From: an uncultured Bacilli bacterium
GTDB taxonomy: Bacteria > Bacillota_I > Bacilli_A > RF39 > UBA660
Reading direction: 5' to 3'
Length of the DNA: 64,000 nucleotides
NCBI GenBank assembly: GCA_947630105.1
Contig: CANRGD010000001.1
Span: forward strand, 5,749-69,748
Below the pieces are notes generated by a model that was not told the DNA's origin, did no database searches, and saw nothing but the letters and a program-made list of their open reading frames with translations. The position numbers were made by a program, and so were the translations under genes. The stretch's first letter is position 1. Each line of letters starts with the position of its first letter. Below, piece after piece: positions 29,984 to 63,151 of this stretch.

Positions 29984-31513
29984 CTAAAATTCAAATTTTT
30001 TTTTATCAATACGTTGAAATAATATTTTAGCTTCATTTAAATTATATTGAGTATCCTCTACATATTTAATATCTTTAACTGTAGTATTCAATTGTTCTAA
30101 AATATTTTTACTAGTATCTGGCATAAATGACTCCAATAAAATTGCACAAACTCTAATTGCTTCTAATAAATTGTATAATACAGTCTTCAATCTATCAACT
30201 TTTGCCTCATCTTTAGCCAAAATCCAAGGTGTTGTTTCATCAATATATTTATTACTAGCCCTTAAAACATTAAATATTTCTGTAATAGCATCACTAATTT
30301 GTAATTGATCCATTTTTTCACAAACTAAAGCATCAAGATTATTTATTTGTTTTATAAAATTCTTATCAACAGTCTCAATAACTTTAGAATTAGTAATGTT
30401 CCCATTAAAATACTTATGTCCCATTGAAATAGTTCTTTGTACAAGGTTACCTAAAACATTAGCAAGTTCACTATTTATTTTTTCAATCATCAGTTCATAA
30501 GAAATATTTCCATCGCTTGCAAAAGGAATCTCATGCAATAAATAAAATCTAACCGCATCAACTCCAAATTTATCAACTAAATCATCAGCATATATAATAT
30601 TTCCCTTAGATTTACTCATCTTATCTAAATTCATTAATAACCATGGATGTCCAAATACTTGTTTAGGCATTTCTAAATCTAAACTCATCAAAAAGCAAGG
30701 CCAATAAATAGTATGAAATCTAATTATATCTTTACCAATCAAATGTAAATCAGCTGGCCAACGATACTTAAACTCCTCAGTTGAAGAATCAAAATCAAAT
30801 CCTATATTTGTAATATAATTCGTAAGAGCATCCAACCACACATAAACAATATGCTTATCATCAAAATCTACAGGAATTCCCCATTTAAAAGAAGTTCTAG
30901 AAACACATAAATCTTGTAAACCTGGTTTAATAAAATTATTAATCATTTCATTTTTTCTAGCAACTGGTTGAATAAATTCAGGATGAGTTTCAATATAATT
31001 TTCTAATTTCTTTTGATATTTAGATAATTTAAAAAAATAAGCTTCTTCTTCCTTTGGTTGTACATCTCTTCCACAATCTGGACATTTTCCATCAACTAAT
31101 TGACTTTCTGTCCAAAAAGATTCGCATGGAATACAATATAATCCTTTATATTCTCCTTTATAAATATCTCCTTTATCATACATGTATTTAAAAATATGTT
31201 GAACAACTTTTTCATGAGTTTTATCCGTAGTTCGTACAAAATTATCATAACTTGTATTCATTAAATCCCATATATTTTTTATCATTGTAGATACTTCATC
31301 AACATATTCTTGAGGTGAAACGCCAGCTTCTTTTGCCTTTAATTCTATTTTTTCACCATGCTCATCTGTTCCTGTTTGAAAATATACATCATATCCTTGA
31401 AATCTTTTATATCTCGCAATAGCATCAGCTAACACTATTTCATAGGTATTACCAATATGCGGTTTTCCAGAAGTATAAGCAATTGCCGTAGAAATATAAT
31501 AACTTTTTTTCAT
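29984..31513 (-). CDS. metG: Methionine--tRNA ligase (short form)
   Basis: 509 aa; HIGN and KMSKSKGN motifs, CPDCG zinc knuckle. Confidence 0.95.
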   Translation of the reverse strand: MKKSYYISTAIAYTSGKPHIGNTYEIVLADAIARYKRFQGYDVYFQTGTDEHGEKIELKAKEAGVSPQEYVDEVSTMIKNIWDLMNTSYDNFVRTTDKTHEKVVQHIFKYMYDKGDIYKGEYKGLYCIPCESFWTESQLVDGKCPDCGRDVQPKEEEAYFFKLSKYQKKLENYIETHPEFIQPVARKNEMINNFIKPGLQDLCVSRTSFKWGIPVDFDDKHIVYVWLDALTNYITNIGFDFDSSTEEFKYRWPADLHLIGKDIIRFHTIYWPCFLMSLDLEMPKQVFGHPWLLMNLDKMSKSKGNIIYADDLVDKFGVDAVRFYLLHEIPFASDGNISYELMIEKINSELANVLGNLVQRTISMGHKYFNGNITNSKVIETVDKNFIKQINNLDALVCEKMDQLQISDAITEIFNVLRASNKYIDETTPWILAKDEAKVDRLKTVLYNLLEAIRVCAILLESFMPDTSKNILEQLNTTVKDIKYVEDTQYNLNEAKILFQRIDKKKFEF

Positions 31514-31519
31514 TTTACC

Positions 31520-31790
31520 CTCTCCTAAAAAAAGTTATTATAATATAAGGACGATTTACCGTGGTACCACCTTATTTTATAATAACTTGTATTATACACT
31601 ATTCTAGTTAACGCCTAGTAGCGATTATTCCTACATATCGAAATAATAGTTCAGAAGCCATATTTTATAATTATTTATTCTCATTTTCACCAACTTGAGA
31701 TCTCTTCTTCATAAAATTTAAATTATAAAACTCTTCATCAAAACTTTTAAATATTTAAAAATTTATACTATTAATATAACATAAGAACAC
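31520..31790 (-). promoter_or_regulatory. Putative T-box riboswitch leader of metG
   Basis: Minus-strand sequence AAGGUGGUACCACGG (31559-31573) matches the conserved T-box motif AGGGUGGNACCGCG. A U-run follows immediately before the metG RBS, and the leader is ~270 nt long. Confidence 0.5.
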
Positions 31791-43554: not shown

Positions 43555-43562
43555 AAAACCTC

Positions 43563-43650
43563 CAAAAAAAAGTGCACATGAAAGTTTAATTTTAAGGCTG
43601 CTATTTTCCAATCCTGACCTAGTTCAATTTCTTTCATTGCACAAGCATAT
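43563..43650 (-). ncRNA. ffs: Small (4.5S-type) signal recognition particle RNA
   Basis: Minus-strand sequence ...GUGCAAUGAAAG AAAUUGAACUAGGUCAGGAUUGGAAAAUAGCAGCCUUAAAAUUAAA CUUUCAUGUGCAC UUUUUUUU. The closing helix GUGCAAUGAAAG/CUUUCAUGUGCAC flanks the conserved domain-IV motif GGUCAGG-N-GGAA-N-AGCAGCC (E. coli: GGUCAGGUCCGGAAGGAAGCAGCC), and a U-run terminator follows. Confidence 0.55.
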
Positions 43651-43748
43651 TTTATATTATTTTATTTATTTTGTAAACAAATAATTTTAATTTTTTGCAT
43701 ACTCTTTTTTTCAAAAAAAATTAAAAAATATTTATATTTATTAAATTT

Positions 43749-43762
43749 ATTTCCCGGGAAAT
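43749..43762. other. Noc-binding-site palindrome ATTTCCCGGGAAAT (perfect match to the B. subtilis NBS consensus)
   Basis: Exact 14-bp palindrome read directly from the sequence, 11 bp from a parS site. Confidence 0.6.
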
Positions 43763-43773
43763 AATTTATTATA

Positions 43774-43789
43774 TGTTTCACGTGAAACA
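43774..43789. other. parS site TGTTTCACGTGAAACA (perfect 16-bp ParB/Spo0J site)
   Basis: Exact match to the canonical Firmicute parS palindrome. Confidence 0.8.
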
Positions 43790-44272
43790 TTCAATTTTTT
43801 TACCTATTTATAATTAATAAAAATATACGACTAGTTATTTGCAGTAATATTAATTTCTCGTAATTGGTGCTAAACTTTTATAATGTAATATATCAATATA
43901 GTCATCAAAATTTTCTACATTTCATTAATATTATTCTGTTCTTTTTTTACAAAAACTCCATAAAAAATAAATACACGGTCTGGAAATATTTCAATATTTG
44001 TTAGTGTTTTTTTATAAACTTTCTTAAGATTTATACATTTTTAGACTATTTTTTACTATAAAATACTCTTTTTTTATATTTTTAGTGCAAAAACAATATA
44101 ATATTTATAATTAGCATGTTCTTATTTGATAAAGTATATTGTCATTCATTGGTATGACATTTTTTTATAATTGGCAAACAAATTTTACTAGTAAAAAAAA
44201 TTTTATTTTAGATTAATAACTAAAATTCTGTTGAACTATCAAAATATTGAAAAAATTTCCTAAAGAAAATAA

Positions 44273-44288
44273 TGTTTCACGTGAAACA
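44273..44288. other. parS site TGTTTCACGTGAAACA embedded in a perfect 38-bp palindrome (44262..44299)
   Basis: aaagaaaataatgtttcac|gtgaaacattattttcttt is perfectly self-complementary. Confidence 0.8.
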
Positions 44289-44464
44289 TTATTTTCTTTA
44301 TTGTAATTAAATCAGTTTATTAAGTTAAATCTTGAATTTTTAATTAATTTATTAATTTTTATTAAAATTTTATATTATAAAAAATTATTTACTCTTTAAT
44401 ATAAATATTTATTTAAACTCATGTTTATAAAATTATTTTCATTTTAAAAAAATAATTTAATATA

Positions 44465-44480
44465 TGTTTCACGTGAAACA
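44465..44480. other. parS site TGTTTCACGTGAAACA
   Basis: Exact match to canonical parS. Confidence 0.8.
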
Positions 44481-44554
44481 TTAAATATTTATTAACAAAA
44501 ATCATATAATATTTGCCTTTTTATATGCATTTATTTAAAATTTATAACAAAATT

Positions 44555-44568
44555 ATTTCCCGGGAAAT
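44555..44568. other. Noc-binding-site palindrome ATTTCCCGGGAAAT followed by a half-site repeat TTTGGGAAATAATT
   Basis: Exact 14-bp palindrome. A further degenerate copy, ATTTCCCAGAAAAT, lies at 44754..44767. Confidence 0.6.
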
Positions 44569-44821
44569 AATTTTTGGGAAATAATTGAAAATAAGTAACT
44601 TTCTTATAAGAAATAATAATAAAAAAATATTTATTACCAATAATTATATAAAATTTAATATATAAAAAAACATAATTATAAAATGATAGTTCATTAAAAA
44701 ACAAAAATATAATTTCAAACTTCAACATACAAATCAATAAAACTATAAAAATTATTTCCCAGAAAATAAATTTTAAAAAATATTTTTCCACAAATATCTT
44801 TTTATATAATGTATACACAAA

Positions 44822-44860
44822 AAAAGCAAAAAATTGTAAAATTTTTTGCTTTTTTATTAT
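44822..44860. terminator. Bidirectional rho-independent terminator downstream of gyrA
   Basis: Hairpin GCAAAAAATT-GTAA-AATTTTTTGC flanked by T/A runs on both strands. Confidence 0.5.
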
Positions 44861-44861
44861 T

Positions 44862-47300
44862 TTATTCTTCTACTTCTTTTTCATCTTTCTTTACTATAGT
44901 AACAGTAGAAACAAGTTGATTATCTTTCAGATTAATTAATCTTACACCTTGAGTTGCTCTCTTTAAAGTAGATATTTGATCTAAAGGCATTTTCATAAAT
45001 ACACCACTATTAGTTACCAATATAACATCTAACTCTTTTTCCACATCCCCTTTAAATGTTTTTAAACTAACCATAATACCATTTTTTTCGGTAATATTAT
45101 AAGCTTTTACTCCTTTGCTACCTCTATGAGTTAATCTATATTCATCAATCAAGCTCTTTTTTCCATAACCATTTTCAGTAACAATCAATACATATTGACC
45201 AGAATCAATAACCTCAGCACCTACCACAATACCATCTTCTAAATCAATACCCTTAACTCCAGAACTACTTCTACCCATAGCTCTAACTTCATTCTCATCA
45301 AATCTAACCATTCGACCATTACTAGAACCAATAATAATTTCATTTTTTCCACAGGTCTTTCTTACACTAATTAGCTCATCATTTTCTTTTAAAACAATAG
45401 CAATTTTACCACTTTTTCTTATGTTATCAAATTCCTCAATAGAAGTTCTTTTTACTATTCCATTTTTAGTAGCAAACATTAAATATTTTGTAAAATTATC
45501 ATCAGTTTTCAATTCTACTATCGAACTAATGTTTTCATTTTTATCTAAAGGTAACAAATTAATTATTGGTAATCCTTTAGATTGCCGAGAAAATTCAGGA
45601 ACCTCATATCCCTTCATTCTATATACCCTTCCTAAATTAGAGAAGAATAATATATAGTCATGAGTTTTCATAGAAACTAAATGTTCCACAAAATCCTCTT
45701 CATTAGTAGACATTCCCTTAATTCCAACTCCACCCCTATTTTGAGTACGATATGTATCACTACGTAATCTCTTTATATATCCATTATTTGTTAAAGTAAT
45801 TATTATATCCTCTTCAGGTATTAAAGATTCATCTTCAATATATTCAATAGCTGTCATATCAATATTTGTTCTTCTTTCATCAGCATATTTTGACTTAATT
45901 TCTAAAAGCTCATTTTTTATAACTTCTAAAACTTTTTGATCACTAGCTAAAATTGCTTTCAAATCAGCAATAGTCTTTAACAAATCAGCTAATTCATTTT
46001 CAATTTTTTCTCTTTCTAAACCAGTTAAACGACGTAATCTCATCTCTAAAATAGCATTAGCTTGAATTTCAGTTAATTTAAAATTACTCATCAAACCAGC
46101 TCGAGCTTCTTCATCAGACTCCGAACCACGAATTAATTTAATAACAGCATCAATATTATCTAAAGCAATTTTTAATCCTTCTAAAATATGAACACGTTTT
46201 TCAGCAACATCTAAATCAAATTTTGTTCTTCTAATAATAACTTCTTTTTGAAATTCAACATATTTAGAAATTATATCCTTTAGACCTAAAGTTTTAGGAA
46301 CACCTTGATCCAACATTAAAAATATAATTCCATAAGAAGTTTGAAAGGCAGTATGCTTATATAACTTATTCAAAACAACTTGAGCATTCGCATCCTTCTT
46401 TAAAGTTATCGTAATTTTTATACCATTTTTTAAATCAGAATGATAATCAGCAATTCCCTCAATTACCTTATTATGAACAAGTTCTGCAACTTTATTTTTT
46501 AATTCTAAAGTATTAACACCATATGGAACTTCATCAATAATAATATATTGCTTACCATTTTTTTCCTCAATTTGAGCTTTACTTCGAATTGTTATTGAAC
46601 CACGACCAGTTTCATATGCTTTTCTTATACCACTATTTCCAAGGATAATAGCTCCCGTAGGAAAATCAGGACCCTTTATATATTTCATTAATCCATCTAA
46701 ATCAATATCAGGATTATCAATATAAGCAACACATCCATCAATAACTTCCCCTAAATTATGGGGAGGAATATTAGTAGCCATACCAACCGCAATACCAGTA
46801 GTTCCATTAACTAAAATATTTGGAAATCTAGAAGGTAAAACCGTTGGCTCTTTCTCACTTTCATCAAAATTTGGAATAAAATCAACAGTATCTTTATTAA
46901 TATTTCTAAGTAATTCCAAAGAAATTTTTGATAATCTAGACTCAGTATATCTCATTGCAGCTGCACCATAACCTTCTATATTACCAAAATTTCCATGTCC
47001 ATCTATCAACATATACCTATAAGAAAAATCTTGAGCCATTCTTACCATAGCTTCATAAATAGAAGAATCACCATGTGGGTGAAAATTACCCATAACCTCT
47101 CCTACTGTTTTGGCACTTTTTCTATGTGGTTTATCAGGTGTATATCCCGATACAAACATTGAATATAAAATTCTTCGATGAACTGGTTTTAAACCATCCC
47201 TTAAATCCGGAATAGCACGTGCTGTAATTACACTCATAGAATAATCTAAGAATGAATCCTGTACCTCTTTAACAATATTATTTTTTTCTAATCTATCCAT
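44862..47300 (-). CDS. gyrA: DNA gyrase subunit A
   Basis: 812 aa; catalytic Tyr region, C-terminal beta-pinwheel repeats. Confidence 0.95.
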
Positions 47301-50481: not shown

Positions 50482-50928
50482 TTATAGATTTTTTCTTTTT
50501 CGTAAAACAAAATCTAATCTTGAAGCTCTAGCAACTTGATTTTCAACAGTTCTATAAGAACAAGGTACAATTAATTCAATATTATTATCAAAAATAATCT
50601 TAGTATTAAAAGAATCTATTTTTATAAACTTTTTCAATCTTTTTAATGAAATCCATACACAATCTTCTGCTAATGGAGAAGTCGTTGGAAAGACAATTAA
50701 ATTATTAGTATCTTCTATTAATATAGGAACTTTATACTCAGCTCCTAAAATATCCCTTGCCCCCTCTTTTCTACCATTATAAGAACTACCAAAATATTTA
50801 CAACTTTCTTCCATAATTTTAAATGGAGACTCTTCAATAATATACCTCTCTTCATCCTCATAGACTAAACTTGTAGCATTTTCATTAGGTACAATTGCTA
50901 ATGTACCATTACTAATTTCATATTTCAT
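50482..50928 (-). CDS. comK: ComK-family transcription factor homologue
   Basis: 148 aa; YEISNGTLAIVPNE, SCKYFGSSYNGRKEGA, KVPILIEDTNNLIVFPTTS, CVWISLKRLKKF and LIVPCSYRTVENQVARASRL align block-by-block with B. subtilis ComK. Confidence 0.7.
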   Translation of the reverse strand: MKYEISNGTLAIVPNENATSLVYEDEERYIIEESPFKIMEESCKYFGSSYNGRKEGARDILGAEYKVPILIEDTNNLIVFPTTSPLAEDCVWISLKRLKKFIKIDSFNTKIIFDNNIELIVPCSYRTVENQVARASRLDFVLRKRKNL

Positions 50929-53720: not shown

Positions 53721-54027
53721 TCCACCATCTCCCCACAAGATAAATAATTTAAATTTAGTGTACCTTAATTTGTGCAAAAAATAAATGTTTTTTTTACAAA
53801 AAAAATTATCCACATTTTATCAACAACTTTTTCCACTAATAAGAGTATTGAATTTAAATGCTAAAGCAAAGTTATCCACATTTTCCACAATTTATTAATA
53901 ACAATGTTCCAAAAAAAAATACACAAGCTTGTGTATAAAGTGAAAAACTCTAAAATTAAAGTTTTAATTGACAAAATATCAATAATATTATTATAATAAT
54001 GTAGATTTATGTCTGGAGGTGGAACAA
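53721..54027. other. oriC region upstream of dnaA with DnaA boxes
   Basis: Perfect TTATCCACA at 53806..53814 and 53872..53880, plus near-boxes TTTTCCACA (53881..53889) and TTTTCCACT (53829..53837); AT-rich flanks. Confidence 0.75.
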
Positions 54028-54150
54028 ATGAAGAGAACATATCAACCAAATAATCGTAAAAAAGCAAAAAAATTAGGCTTTTTTGCTCGCAAGAAAACAA
54101 ATATTTTAAATCGTCGCCGTCGCAAAGGTCGTAAAAGTCTTTGCGCCTAA
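54028..54150 (+). CDS. rpmH: 50S ribosomal protein L34
   Basis: Manual translation gives [40 protein letters not shown], preceded by a GGAGGTGG RBS. Too short for the supplied ORF track. Confidence 0.85.
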
Positions 54151-54198
54151 AACCGCTGATAAAACAGTGGTTTTTTACTCTTAAAAAGAAGGGATATT

Positions 54199-59987: not shown

Positions 59988-60071
59988 AATCTTATCTACT
60001 AAAAATCATTGAAATAAAATAATAAATAGTATATAATGAAAATAGGGAAAAAGAATAAGCGAGGGATGAAA

Positions 60072-61385
60072 ATGTTTAATGATGAAAAAGATGAAGTAGT
60101 ACAATTATTTTTAGATGATATCATTCCAAATAGATTTCAACCACGCGAAGTCTTTGATGAGAAAGCTTTAAAAGAATTAGCGGTTTCTATTAAAGAACAT
60201 GGAGTAATTCAACCCATTATTGTACGAAGTGTAAATGGAAAATATGAAATAATAGCCGGTGAAAGAAGATATAAAGCCTCAGCTTTAGCAGGTTTAACTA
60301 AAATCCCAGCAATAATAAGAAATTTAGATGATAAAGAAAGTTCTAAAGTAGCTTTACTTGAAAATTTACAAAGAAAGAATTTAAATCCTATAGAAGAAGC
60401 TAGAACTTATCAAAAAATTTTAGAAATTGATGAAATGACTCAAGAAGAGTTAGCTAAAACAATGGGAAAAAGTCAATCTGCAGTAGCTAATAAAATAAGA
60501 TTACTTTCTTTACCTGATGAAATACAAGATTCATTATTAAAAGAACAAATTTCAGAAAGACATGCTCGTGCATTATTAAATATCCCTAATGCCAAAAAAC
60601 AAAAAGAAATGTTAAATAAGATTATAACTACAAAAATGAGTGTCAGAAATTTAGAAGAAGAAATAAAAAAAGAATATCCTAAAGATACTGATTCATCAAC
60701 ATCAGATGAAGGAAATGACTCATCTCCAGCTTCACAGGAGAACTTATCTCCTAATAATTTTGTTAATAATAGTCCACTTGCTCCAACAGCTGAATTACCA
60801 GAAGATACATCAAATTATGGTAAAGTCACAATAGTTCCTCCTGTTGGAGAAACTGCCACTGATCAACCTAAATTTATTAATTATAATGAAAGTGAAGCAA
60901 ATAATGATGATGACGATGATGAAGGAGGAGATATTAACATTCCAACTTCAATAAATCCTATAAATATAAATGAAATAAAAGAAACATCAAAAAATATAGA
61001 GACTCCTTCTTCAGCAGATTTAGATGGATTATTAAATTTGAATGAAAATTTAAATTCTGAAAATAATGAAAAATTTATTACTCCAGCAGAAAAGATAGTT
61101 AAAACAGATAATGTTAATACTACTGAAACAACAGAAGATTATTTTAAAACTCCAGATTTGTCTGCTTTAGAAGTTCCATCTATAAAGAAAACAACTAATC
61201 CAGATTTAATTTCAATAAATACTACTCAAGATATAAATCCTAAATATAGTTTAGAAGAAGCAACACAAAAAATTAAAAATTTATATGATGACTTAAAAAA
61301 TAATGGTATAAAAGTCACCCTTGATGAGATGGATTTTCCAAATTCTTATCAAGCTATTATAAAAATAGAAAAAGATGGAGAATAA
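60072..61385 (+). CDS. noc: Nucleoid occlusion protein Noc (ParB paralogue) with a long acidic disordered insertion
   Basis: ParB box GERRYKA. HTH region GKSQSAVANKIRLL...ISERHARAL matches B. subtilis Noc (GKGQSTIANKLRLL...ITERHARAL) rather than Spo0J (GKSRP...GHGRTL). Located between rsmG and soj. Start chosen at the ATG 6 nt after a GAGGG RBS; the caller's ORF begins at 60036. Confidence 0.7.
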   Translation: MFNDEKDEVVQLFLDDIIPNRFQPREVFDEKALKELAVSIKEHGVIQPIIVRSVNGKYEIIAGERRYKASALAGLTKIPAIIRNLDDKESSKVALLENLQRKNLNPIEEARTYQKILEIDEMTQEELAKTMGKSQSAVANKIRLLSLPDEIQDSLLKEQISERHARALLNIPNAKKQKEMLNKIITTKMSVRNLEEEIKKEYPKDTDSSTSDEGNDSSPASQENLSPNNFVNNSPLAPTAELPEDTSNYGKVTIVPPVGETATDQPKFINYNESEANNDDDDDEGGDINIPTSINPININEIKETSKNIETPSSADLDGLLNLNENLNSENNEKFITPAEKIVKTDNVNTTETTEDYFKTPDLSALEVPSIKKTTNPDLISINTTQDINPKYSLEEATQKIKNLYDDLKNNGIKVTLDEMDFPNSYQAIIKIEKDGE

Positions 61386-61485
61386 TAAAAGAGGTAGAAA
61401 AATTTCTACTTTTTTTAATTAAAGCATTTTAAAAATAAACTTTATTTGATACAATATAATAAGTTAATTGAAAATGGGTGATAAG

Positions 61486-62271
61486 ATGGGAAAGGTTATA
61501 TCATTAGTTAATCAAAAAGGTGGAGTAGGCAAAACAACTACAAGTATAAATCTTTCTGCATCATTAGCAGTATTAGGAAAAAAAGTTTTATTAATCGATT
61601 TAGATCCTCAAGGAAATACGACTACTGGTGTAGGAATAAATAAGGGTGACATTGAACAAAGTATTTATGATGTTTTAATAGGAGAATGCAACATTAATGA
61701 TGCTATAATTAAAACAAAATATAAAAATTTATTTGTTCTTCCAGCAACAATAAATTTAGCAGGTTTAGATATTGAATTAATGGAAAAAAGCAAACAAGAA
61801 GCTGGCTTTGTAAAAGGAGAACAATTAAAAAAATATCTTCAAGCTATAGAAGAACAATTTGATTATGTCATTATAGATTGTCCACCTTCTTTAGGCGTAA
61901 TAACAACAAATGCTTTAACAGCATCTAATTCAGTTATTATTCCTGTCCAATGTGAATTCTTTGCTTTAGAAGGAATTACACAATTATTAAAAACAATAAT
62001 GTTAGCTCAAAAAACTTTAAATCCAAATCTTGATATTGAAGGAGTTCTTTTAACAATGTTAGATTCAAGAACTAATTTAGGCTTTGAAGTAGTAGATGAT
62101 ATAAGAAAATTTTTTAAAGAAAAAGTTTATAATACAATTATACCAAGATTAGTAAGATTAACAGAAGCTCCATCTCATGGAGAACCAATAGTTGCTTATG
62201 ATCCCAAAAGTCGAGGATCGGAGGCTTATATTAATCTAGCAAAGGAAGTGATTGCAAGAAATGGAGAATAA
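61486..62271 (+). CDS. soj: Chromosome partitioning ATPase Soj/ParA
   Basis: Deviant Walker A KGGVGKTTT. Start moved to the MGKVISL ATG; the caller's ORF begins at 61468. Confidence 0.9.
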   Translation: MGKVISLVNQKGGVGKTTTSINLSASLAVLGKKVLLIDLDPQGNTTTGVGINKGDIEQSIYDVLIGECNINDAIIKTKYKNLFVLPATINLAGLDIELMEKSKQEAGFVKGEQLKKYLQAIEEQFDYVIIDCPPSLGVITTNALTASNSVIIPVQCEFFALEGITQLLKTIMLAQKTLNPNLDIEGVLLTMLDSRTNLGFEVVDDIRKFFKEKVYNTIIPRLVRLTEAPSHGEPIVAYDPKSRGSEAYINLAKEVIARNGE

Positions 62272-63151
62272 CAATAATATTCCAAAAAGAAGAGCCTTAG
62301 GACGAGGTTTAGAAGAATTATTTAGTAATGAAATTCTAGATTATAGTAAAGTAGAAGAAAAAATAATTACCGAATCAAAAAAAGATGAAATAGTTTTACT
62401 TAAATTAGATGAATTAAGAGCTAATCCATATCAACCTAGAAAATATTTTGACCAAGAAGCTCTACAAGAATTATCTAATTCTATTAAAGAACATGGTGTA
62501 TTTCAACCAATAATCGTTAAACCTAGTATAAAAGGCTATGAAATAATAGCTGGTGAAAGAAGAGTTAAAGCTTCCCTTATGGCAGGCTTAAAAGAAATAC
62601 CAGCCATTGTTAAAGATTTTAATGATACTCAAATGATGGAAATTGCTTTATTAGAAAATTTACAACGAGAAAATTTAAATTCCATTGAAGAAGCAACAGC
62701 TTATAAAAAATTATTAGAAACACTAGCTATAACTCAAGAAGAACTAGCTAAAAGATTAGGTAAAAGTAGAAGTCATATTACTAATATGTTAGGTTTATTA
62801 AATTTAGATTCCTCAATTCAAAATTTAATAAGTGATAAAAAAATATCAATGGGCCATGCTCGTGTACTTAGTAAATTAGAAGATTCAAAACAACAATATA
62901 ATTTAGCTTTAAAAGTAATAAATGAAGATTTAAGTGTTAGAGAATTAGAAAAAATAACTACCGAAAAAGATAAATATACTAGAATTCATTCCATTAAAAC
63001 AAAAACTATTTCCAATGAATTTAAATATTTAGAAGAAGAATTATGTGATAAACTTGGAACAAAAGTAAAAATAAGTAAAAACAAAGTAGAAATAAGTTTT
63101 GCAAATGCTAATGACTTAAATAGATTATTAGAAATTATGAAATTAAATTAA
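62252..63151 (+). CDS. spo0J: Chromosome partitioning protein ParB/Spo0J
   Basis: GERRVKA ParB box, HTH GKSRSHITNMLGLL...GHARVL (arginine at the parS-specificity position). Confidence 0.85.
   Translation: MQEMENNNNIPKRRALGRGLEELFSNEILDYSKVEEKIITESKKDEIVLLKLDELRANPYQPRKYFDQEALQELSNSIKEHGVFQPIIVKPSIKGYEIIAGERRVKASLMAGLKEIPAIVKDFNDTQMMEIALLENLQRENLNSIEEATAYKKLLETLAITQEELAKRLGKSRSHITNMLGLLNLDSSIQNLISDKKISMGHARVLSKLEDSKQQYNLALKVINEDLSVRELEKITTEKDKYTRIHSIKTKTISNEFKYLEEELCDKLGTKVKISKNKVEISFANANDLNRLLEIMKLN

Follow-up and report, generated by a model that had tools for sequence, protein, structure and literature searches.

The textbook case of a DNA-binding protein that was duplicated and whose copies diverged in specificity and in function is that of ParB and Noc, and their sites are taught as contrasting in genomic distribution. 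Why, then, should both kinds of site, parS for ParB and the Noc-binding site (NBS) for Noc, be found in one and the same tract beside a replication origin? The question is raised by a stretch of 64,000 nucleotides (hereafter the window; contig CANRGD010000001.1) from a lineage of uncultured metagenome-assembled genomes (MAGs) labelled 'Bacilli bacterium', with ~25% GC and, among relatives, complete chromosomes of ~1.5 Mb. In this window a gap of 1,208 bp (43654-44861) separates gyrA from ffs, the gene of the signal recognition particle (SRP) RNA, and carries both types of site. According to published work, parS is restricted to the surroundings of oriC and NBS are widespread except near the terminus, ter (PMC7383237), and in Staphylococcus aureus 41 Noc loci are dispersed over ±700 kb (PMC5540599). 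We find that the mixed array recurs at the same position in related genomes, and that the tract is probably a composite centromere for two clamp proteins rather than a compact pad for nucleoid occlusion.

Scanning the window with the consensus sequences of Bacillus subtilis (as in Jalal et al. 2021, PMC8429893), we recovered all the sites that the initial annotation had placed in the tract. The parS palindrome TGTTTCACGTGAAACA occurs exactly at 43774, 44273 and 44465 (0.01 expected from shuffled sequences), and no further parS with two or fewer mismatches was found in the rest of the window. The 14-bp NBS ATTTCCCGGGAAAT occurs exactly at 43749 and 44555 (0.14 expected), both copies fitting the full 16-bp consensus TATTTCCCGGGAAATA; a third copy, ATTTCCCAGAAAAT at 44754, deviates at two positions, and no NBS was found in the window outside the tract. 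NBS1 (exact 16-mer at 43748-43763, within an 18-bp palindrome) and parS1 (exact, 43774-43789) form a tight hetero-pair, separated by 11 bp (14-mer to 16-mer) as had been annotated, and by 26 bp from centre to centre. The second parS (44273-44288) is the centre of a perfect 40-bp palindrome (44261-44300) with 20-nt arms of 100% complementarity, which scores as a bidirectional terminator-like hairpin; the palindromes at the other sites measure only 18-26 bp. The flank of parS3 (exact, 44465-44480) resembles a decayed NBS1-parS1 unit. Because an 80-nt direct repeat (43720-43799 versus 44411-44490) keeps 73% identity with that unit, the sequence suggests that parS3 once had a neighbouring NBS which has since decayed, that is, that sites turn over inside the array. 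The 16-mer of NBS2 (44554-44569) lies in a 26-bp palindrome (44549-44574) that is followed by an extra half-site, GGGAAATA (44576-44583), the whole spanning 44549-44583. By motif scan and direct repeat, the degenerate NBS3* (TATTTCCCAGAAAATA, 44753-44768), with two mismatches and one half-site intact, likewise looks like a degenerating copy of NBS2.

The tract is the largest gap of the window, in which the 58 gaps have a median of 41 bp, the second largest measures 448 bp and 91% of the sequence is coding, and it holds no open reading frame (ORF) with a family hit; its description as a long tract among short gaps is thus borne out. We considered what else it could contain. A hidden gene was rejected, the sole ORF of at least 80 residues (44531-44818) being of low complexity and without NCBIfam hit, and so was a hidden RNA, a permissive Rfam search giving the flanking SRP RNA alone. 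Promoter-like sites in the tract are not above the shuffled expectation (16 versus 17). Neither is there a second origin or DnaA-box cluster, with one 1-mismatch box in the tract and a box density across the arrays of the lineage at or below the general rate of the window. An origin of the window's own array by tandem repetition was discarded as well, Tandem Repeats Finder giving only AT-rich micro-repeats.

The arrangement is not peculiar to this genome. In an unbiased set of seven non-redundant relatives, picked by GyrA homology (86-93% identity), all seven have a gap of 0.86-1.8 kb after gyrA that contains both parS (3-6 copies) and NBS (1-5 copies). We also searched 185,579 species, each represented by a single genome, for an NBS core with a parS core 12-42 bp after it; this pattern matched at least 120 species-level genomes, with ~0.002 expected by chance according to our estimate. 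Among the matches listed, all 120 come from uncultured MAGs of gut, rumen or digester origin, whose labels are Bacilli, Tenericutes, Mollicutes, 'Clostridium sp. CAG:710/417/1000' or Candidatus (Ca.) (Allo)scybalousia. In 118 of these 120 the array is flanked by GyrA and/or TadA/DnaX, with GyrA 54-86% identical to that of the window, and in 118 of the 120, ascertained as they are by the pattern, both site types lie in the gyrA-ffs gap. The SRP RNA gene abuts the array in the 10 relatives tested for it (10/10), and the order dnaA-dnaN-recF-gyrB-gyrA-array is also found in relatives. Across 126 homologous arrays the median is 6 sites over 518 bp and the maximum 20 sites over 2.6 kb, and the number and order of sites differ widely among species. 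In several MAGs the array reaches the end of a contig or is divided between two contigs (L018/L037 and L085/L121, each pair from one MAG; L017, L032 and L038); short-read assembly thus seems to fail at repeat-rich arrays, and MAGs may under-represent them. As to names, the clade probably corresponds to the GTDB order RF39, its named representative Ca. Alloscybalousia is Bacilli incertae sedis in NCBI, and 'Scybalousia' is a homonym of a Bacteroidales genus.

How do NBS lie elsewhere? As a control, metagenome contigs were scanned with the bare 16-bp NBS, which gave at least 120 loci, 64 with GC of at least 33% and 56 with GC below 33%. Among the matches listed, the 64 loci of higher GC carry 67 NBS and one parS, the latter beside noc-parAB genes, and none of the 67 NBS (0/67) lies within 100 bp of a parS; the 56 loci of lower GC carry 101 NBS and 84 parS, with 30 NBS at most 100 bp from a parS, and GyrA, TadA or DnaX is present in nearly all of the parS-bearing ones. 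Since the loci of higher GC have no close pairs, the juxtaposition appears, on this comparison, to be specific to the lineage. A combined zone next to oriC is unusual beside the dispersed NBS of B. subtilis and S. aureus (PMC7383237, PMC5540599), as the initial annotation maintained. Two metagenome loci of other lineages, L182 (GC 0.29) and L137 (GC 0.52), have noc-parA-parB with one or two parS and one or two NBS in the same stretch that are not within 100 bp of each other, which is the more conventional arrangement.

The same contigs indicate where the NBS of the lineage are concentrated. Of the 56 listed low-GC loci, 37 are the array locus itself, a further 15 show synteny with genes of the 64-kb origin window (for the most part mfd, pth, rsmI and recR, at 3-10 kb from the array) and 4 contain no window gene. 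The origin region thus accounts for ~93% (52/56) of them, against ~4% expected if they were spread over 1.5 Mb, the share being taken from GC-filtered matches and from metagenomes in which origin regions have higher coverage. By this indirect measure, the chromosome-wide spread of NBS except near the terminus, a feature of canonical Noc, is not seen in the listed metagenome loci. In the flanks of the arrays the contrast is sharp for parS, with 443 copies inside the 126 arrays and 1 exact copy outside them in 964 kb. The same 964 kb contain 46 exact NBS, and the NBS density inside the arrays is about two orders of magnitude higher. These satellite NBS are all origin-distal of the array (dnaX 19, ybaB 3, a methyltransferase gene 5, rsmI 1), and in the flanks of relatives none was found in gyrA, gyrB, recF, dnaN or dnaA. 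As far as the data reach, the many equally good scattered sites that would have made the cluster unremarkable were not seen. The exact NBS in dnaX are at times paired 30 bp apart (e.g., 15798 and 15828 in L001); a further exact site is at 15142 in L002.

Are the sites themselves maintained, or only the DNA that bears them? Since a blastn comparison of spacers was uninformative from the AT-rich background, we used information content in its place. Over ~820 sites it falls to zero beyond an 18-bp parS, ATGTTTCACGTGAAACAT, and an NBS of ~24 bp, aAAtTATTTCCCGGGAAATAaTTt; in the variant of parS met with most often, position 5 is C, and 341 NBS copies across relatives are exact. Tandem repeats occur in 31 of the 126 arrays, and the other 95, that of the window included, are of unique sequence. 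In 22 arrays the repeat unit holds both NBS and parS, with periods of 62-309 bp; three of them viewed directly have periods of 75, 126 and 108 bp and unit sequences that are unrelated, which points to independent amplifications of the hetero-unit in different arrays. Given that information is zero outside the sites and that 95/126 arrays are not tandem repeats, selection acts on the sites and not on the spacer. No third conserved motif was retained, the enriched k-mers being those of the SRP RNA gene and the gyrA tail.

The distances between sites are not arbitrary either. In the unbiased set, neighbours lie within 66 bp in 17 of 28 cases when they are an NBS and a parS and in 0 of 14 when they are alike (Fisher p=1.2e-4); in the full set, after removal of the one ascertained pair per locus, close neighbours make up 181/321 of the unlike and 44/214 of the like cases (p=7.5e-17). 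Moreover, the centre distances of NBS-parS pairs are periodic at 10.3-10.5 bp (power 12.7, n=254), a value reached by none of 2000 jittered nulls, and remain so when pairs with similar spacers are collapsed (power 7.7, n=237, p~0.005). The peaks, at about 26, 36, 47, 57 and 68 bp, are near half-integral helical turns, and the NBS1-parS1 pair of the window (26 bp) falls on the first of them (26-27 bp); parS-parS and NBS-NBS distances show no periodicity. We regard this helical phasing as suggestive, since shared ancestry is controlled for only in part and an independent set of 21 pairs is underpowered. The two classes of site are discrete: 454 are pure parS, 346 are pure NBS, 0 are parS/NBS chimeras, and just 8 deviate in any way at the two discriminating positions. 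A single protein of dual specificity, or ParB/Noc heterodimers, were therefore set aside, with 0 chimeric sites among more than 800, and this strict division argues for two separate homodimers.

Proteins of both types are encoded in the window, as annotated, at 60.0-63.2 kb on the other side of oriC. The canonical ParB/Spo0J (62261-63151, plus strand, 296 residues) has ParB_N, HTH_ParB and ParB_C domains, the motifs GKSR...MGHAR (R173...G201) and IIAGERR, and an N-terminal LGRGL; its best match in the PDB is B. subtilis Spo0J (6SDK), at 207 bits versus ~155 for Noc structures. The Noc ortholog (60072-61385, plus strand, 437 residues) has ParB_N and HTH_ParB Pfam domains and matches the Noc structures at 215 bits versus 172 for Spo0J. 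A Shine-Dalgarno (SD) sequence, GAGGGA, precedes its ATG at 60072, and the ORF start listed at 60036 is over-extended, the maximal ORF adding merely 12 unconserved basic residues without an SD sequence. Between both lies the gene of a ParA/Soj-type ATPase (61468-62271, plus strand; ParA/MinD superfamily hits), in the order of B. subtilis noc-soj-spo0J.

The specificity code that separates the two proteins is QKKR in Noc and RTAG in ParB (PMC7383237). The Noc ortholog has Q173, K179 and R201, with S at 184, and in its family there is next to no variation in Q, K and R, while position 184 is S, N, T, A or G, never K. In the work of Jalal et al. (2020), ~91% of the NBS-specific variants carried K or R at 179 or 184, and only ~19% carried it at both. 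Because these variants seldom have K/R at both positions, a Q-K-S-R protein is expected from its sequence to be specific for NBS. The CTP-binding motif GERR is intact in 120 close and 145 distant Noc-type members.

What the family does not have is the membrane-targeting part of Noc. The amphipathic helix at the N-terminus (alpha-1), together with alpha-2/loop, belongs to the Noc family only and is needed to bind the membrane and to exert nucleoid occlusion (PMC8429893), and both the helix and alpha-2 are absent from 120 close and 144 distant family members. All 119 close homologs (119/119) begin M-x-x-D-x-K-D-E-V-V, ~8 residues before the conserved block, and the number of residues before the PNRFQPR box has a median of 16 (~16-18) in 144 representatives of clusters at 50% identity, against 39 in B. 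subtilis Noc. A hydrophobic-moment scan gave no clear candidate for an amphipathic membrane helix elsewhere in the Noc ortholog, and AlphaFold2 (AF2) predicts short low-confidence helices at linker motifs only. The protein also has an insertion of ~190 residues between its DNA-binding and C-terminal dimerisation domains (~100-500 across the family), which at residues ~205-390 has an AF2 predicted local distance difference test (pLDDT) score below 55, that is, predicted disordered. A folded domain in it was rejected on this score and on the lack of a Pfam hit, no fold search having been made. Short motifs in the insertion are conserved lineage-wide: YGKVTIVPPVGET, KFINYNE, DLDGLLNL, FITPAEKIVKT and EDYF. 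The 150 best cluster representatives (50% identity) of this subfamily are nearly all Q-K-x-R, with GERR invariant.

Taken together, these observations are consistent with the following mechanism. ParB homodimers would nucleate at parS and Noc-type homodimers at the interdigitated NBS; both, as CTP-dependent clamps, would then slide outwards and form two orthogonal nucleoprotein complexes over the same few kb covering oriC. Loading would take place in the gap that the gyrA terminator and the ffs promoter enclose, which would be transcriptionally quiet, and spreading over 8-15 kb, as in model species, would reach dnaA/oriC. ParB would provide the usual ParA- and SMC-linked segregation of the origin. 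Since the Noc-type paralog is devoid of a membrane helix and has its sites in the origin region only, it would be a second centromere-bound factor and not a chromosome-wide nucleoid-occlusion factor; speculatively, its linker motifs could recruit a partner or tune the ParB/SMC complex. The sites with their conservation, placement and spacing, their strict division into two classes and the features of the proteins come from the computation itself; the assignment of proteins to sites, their CTP-dependent loading and sliding, and their co-occupancy of the tract are what we infer by homology. The initial annotation had proposed a role in both origin segregation and nucleoid occlusion: the loading zone is genuine and non-random, and the nucleoid-occlusion half is doubtful, given an ortholog without membrane helix and NBS restricted to the origin. 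Its further suggestion of a compact solution for a small genome finds no support; if anything, a streamlined genome pays here for a long non-coding tract.

Several explanations other than a composite centromere have to be weighed. The tract could simply combine canonical ParB segregation with a canonical Noc that tethers origin DNA to the membrane and exerts nucleoid occlusion, as would suit an NBS consensus in the array that does not differ from the one in B. subtilis and S. aureus (PMC5540599), a paralog that is the syntenic noc ortholog, matches Noc structures best and keeps the CTP motif, and the presence of some NBS outside the array (46 exact in 964 kb). We think this quite unlikely, with the amphipathic helix and alpha-2 absent in 120 close and 144 distant family members (PMC8429893) and with NBS loci ~93% origin-proximal among the matches listed, against the chromosome-wide spread that underlies the positional logic of canonical Noc (PMC7383237). 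The NBS-bound paralog dimers, tens of bp away from each parS, could instead be mainly a regulatory barrier, roadblocks or insulators that shape the distribution of ParB clamps and SMC loading, comparable to the role speculated for RicO-ricS close to parS in S. aureus. The tight, phased hetero-pairs are common and the satellite NBS lie on the origin-distal side of the array only, both of which fit a barrier, and ParB sliding is sensitive to DNA-bound roadblocks (PMC8299390, PMC9242446). But a CTP clamp departs from its nucleation site once loaded, so that occupancy of NBS may be transient; ParB is able to bypass roadblocks via dimer-dimer recruitment (PMC9242446); and a pure barrier leaves the conserved disordered linker with its short motifs unexplained. 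A barrier role is, in our judgement, unlikely.

Co-location could also be neutral, the gyrA-ffs gap being the nearest tolerant non-coding DNA to oriC, where the sites of two systems accumulate and are co-amplified by slippage without any interplay. Tandem repeats, present in 31/126 arrays, can indeed co-amplify neighbouring sites, the intervening DNA of the arrays is unconserved, and site number and order vary between species. However, NBS tolerate coding DNA (19 in dnaX), so that placement in a gap is unnecessary, and genomes that are otherwise streamlined (median gap 41 bp) have kept a long tract even where GyrA identity is down to 54%. It is also the unlike sites that are close, not the like ones, with helical periodicity in NBS-parS distances only, and NBS and parS are not co-located in other taxa (the loci with GC of at least 33% among the matches listed). 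We consider this account very unlikely.

The two-clamp centromere, the reading that we prefer, has evidence against it as well. The array of the window is rather irregular, with one tight pair only, and the strict alternation of sites that some species show results from tandem amplification. The phasing along the helix is modest (mean resultant ~0.2), shared ancestry inflates its significance, and no periodicity was detectable in the small independent metagenome set (n=21, underpowered). NBS also occur inside genes, as do the 19 in dnaX, so the array is not their sole location, and the coverage bias mentioned above bears on their origin-proximal share. Lastly, the Noc ortholog may have a membrane-binding element elsewhere. 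A stronger version of the two-clamp reading can be entertained only tentatively, and we would not expect it to hold in full: that the Q-K-x-R paralog without the helix has no part at all in nucleoid occlusion and is the obligate second clamp in a centromere of two proteins, loaded from sites that face the other side of the helix at tens of bp from each parS, and that the lineage may preserve, or have reverted to, an intermediate stage in the evolution of Noc, in which a duplicated ParB had switched specificity and was still centromeric, before it acquired the membrane helix and its sites dispersed.

The gene order around the tract runs from oriC as dnaA-dnaN-(ComK-like)-recF-gyrB-gyrA and, beyond the array, as ffs-tadA-dnaX; on the opposite side of oriC come rsmG and the genes of the Noc-type ParB paralog, ParA and ParB, as in B. 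subtilis. GC skew changes sign at ~53.9 kb and DnaA boxes (53806-53938) are clustered upstream of dnaA; skew switch and boxes place oriC in the gap upstream of dnaA (53814-54198), and the array therefore lies ~9.6 kb from it. On its origin-proximal flank the array is bounded by gyrA (44862-47300, minus strand; NCBIfam NF004043, 1141.8 bits), which is followed by a terminator-like hairpin (44819-44849, minus strand; GCAAAAAATT-GTAA-AATTTTTTGC, then a T-run on the minus strand) recognised by reading the sequence and as an inverted repeat; with fewer than three G-C pairs it was passed over by the terminator scan. The origin-distal flank is the SRP RNA gene (43556-43653, minus strand; Rfam RF00169, 55.6 bits), and directly upstream of its 5' end there is a promoter-like site, TTTACA-17-TAAAAT (43649-43677, minus strand; consensus match 10/12). 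By the initial annotation, the rrnO operon occupies the position of the array in B. subtilis. Two other features of the window were observed. Between dnaN and recF there is an ORF of 148 residues of the ComK family (50482-50928, minus strand), with Pfam PF06338 in every relative and no NCBIfam hit; B. subtilis presumably has at this position the small S4-like gene yaaA/rlbA. A T-box leader (RF00230, 101 bits; 31544-31750, minus strand) stands upstream of an ORF of 509 residues (29984-31513).

What would follow from such an arrangement? An entire clade of Bacilli that abound in gut and rumen, with genomes of ~1.5 Mb, puts both site types in one conserved centromeric tract, and its Noc ortholog lost, or never had, the membrane switch. 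The helix-less subfamily is a large uncharacterised group of proteins, with more than 150 clusters at 50% identity, each having short conserved motifs within a disordered linker. The clade would offer a natural system in which two orthogonal CTP clamps share DNA, bearing on clamp collision, bypass and the organisation of partition complexes, and it is a candidate for an intermediate stage in the evolution that led to nucleoid occlusion. Although the organisms are uncultured, the arrangement is amenable to in vitro work with synthetic genes and 1-kb DNA.

Comparison with known systems helps to place it. RacA-ram of sporulating B. subtilis resembles the array in that a dedicated kinetochore-like protein, working beside Spo0J, has many sites near the origin; RacA, unlike the Noc paralog of the array, is neither a ParB paralog nor a CTP clamp, and ram sites extend across hundreds of kb without being interleaved with parS. 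With the ParABS centromere of B. subtilis (Spo0J-parS) the array shares the 16-bp parS palindrome, the 18-bp form of the lineage, ATGTTTCACGTGAAACAT, being the B. subtilis oligonucleotide (PMC8429893), as well as an origin-proximal and multicopy location, a ParB with the R..G residues and GERR, and an adjacent ParA. It differs in that the parS copies observed are all in one non-coding gap instead of being dispersed and often intragenic, with none in the parB of the window, and in that they are interdigitated with the sites of a second protein. The Noc-NBS systems of B. subtilis and S. aureus have an identical NBS core, a syntenic noc (rsmG-noc-parA-parB), Q173, K179 and R201, and the CTP motif; the Noc of this lineage differs from theirs by the absence of the N-terminal amphipathic helix and alpha-2, by a residue 184 that is never K, and by a disordered insertion of ~100-500 residues with motifs, and its NBS are concentrated in or beside the parS array, whereas the known sites are scattered, at 41 loci in S. 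aureus and many in B. subtilis, across the half to two-thirds of the chromosome that is nearest the origin. RicO-ricS of S. aureus (bioRxiv 10.64898/2026.03.06.710092) is also a second sequence-specific system with sites near the origin together with parS, for which cross-talk with ParB/SMC has been proposed. RicO, however, is unrelated to ParB, does not spread and has a C-terminal amphipathic membrane helix, and ricS lies 5-12 kb from parS, against 26-68 bp in the array. In full-text literature searches we found neither interleaved parS/NBS arrays nor Noc orthologs devoid of the helix described. The parts of this system, parS, NBS, ParB and Noc, are known; their arrangement and the protein variant are new.

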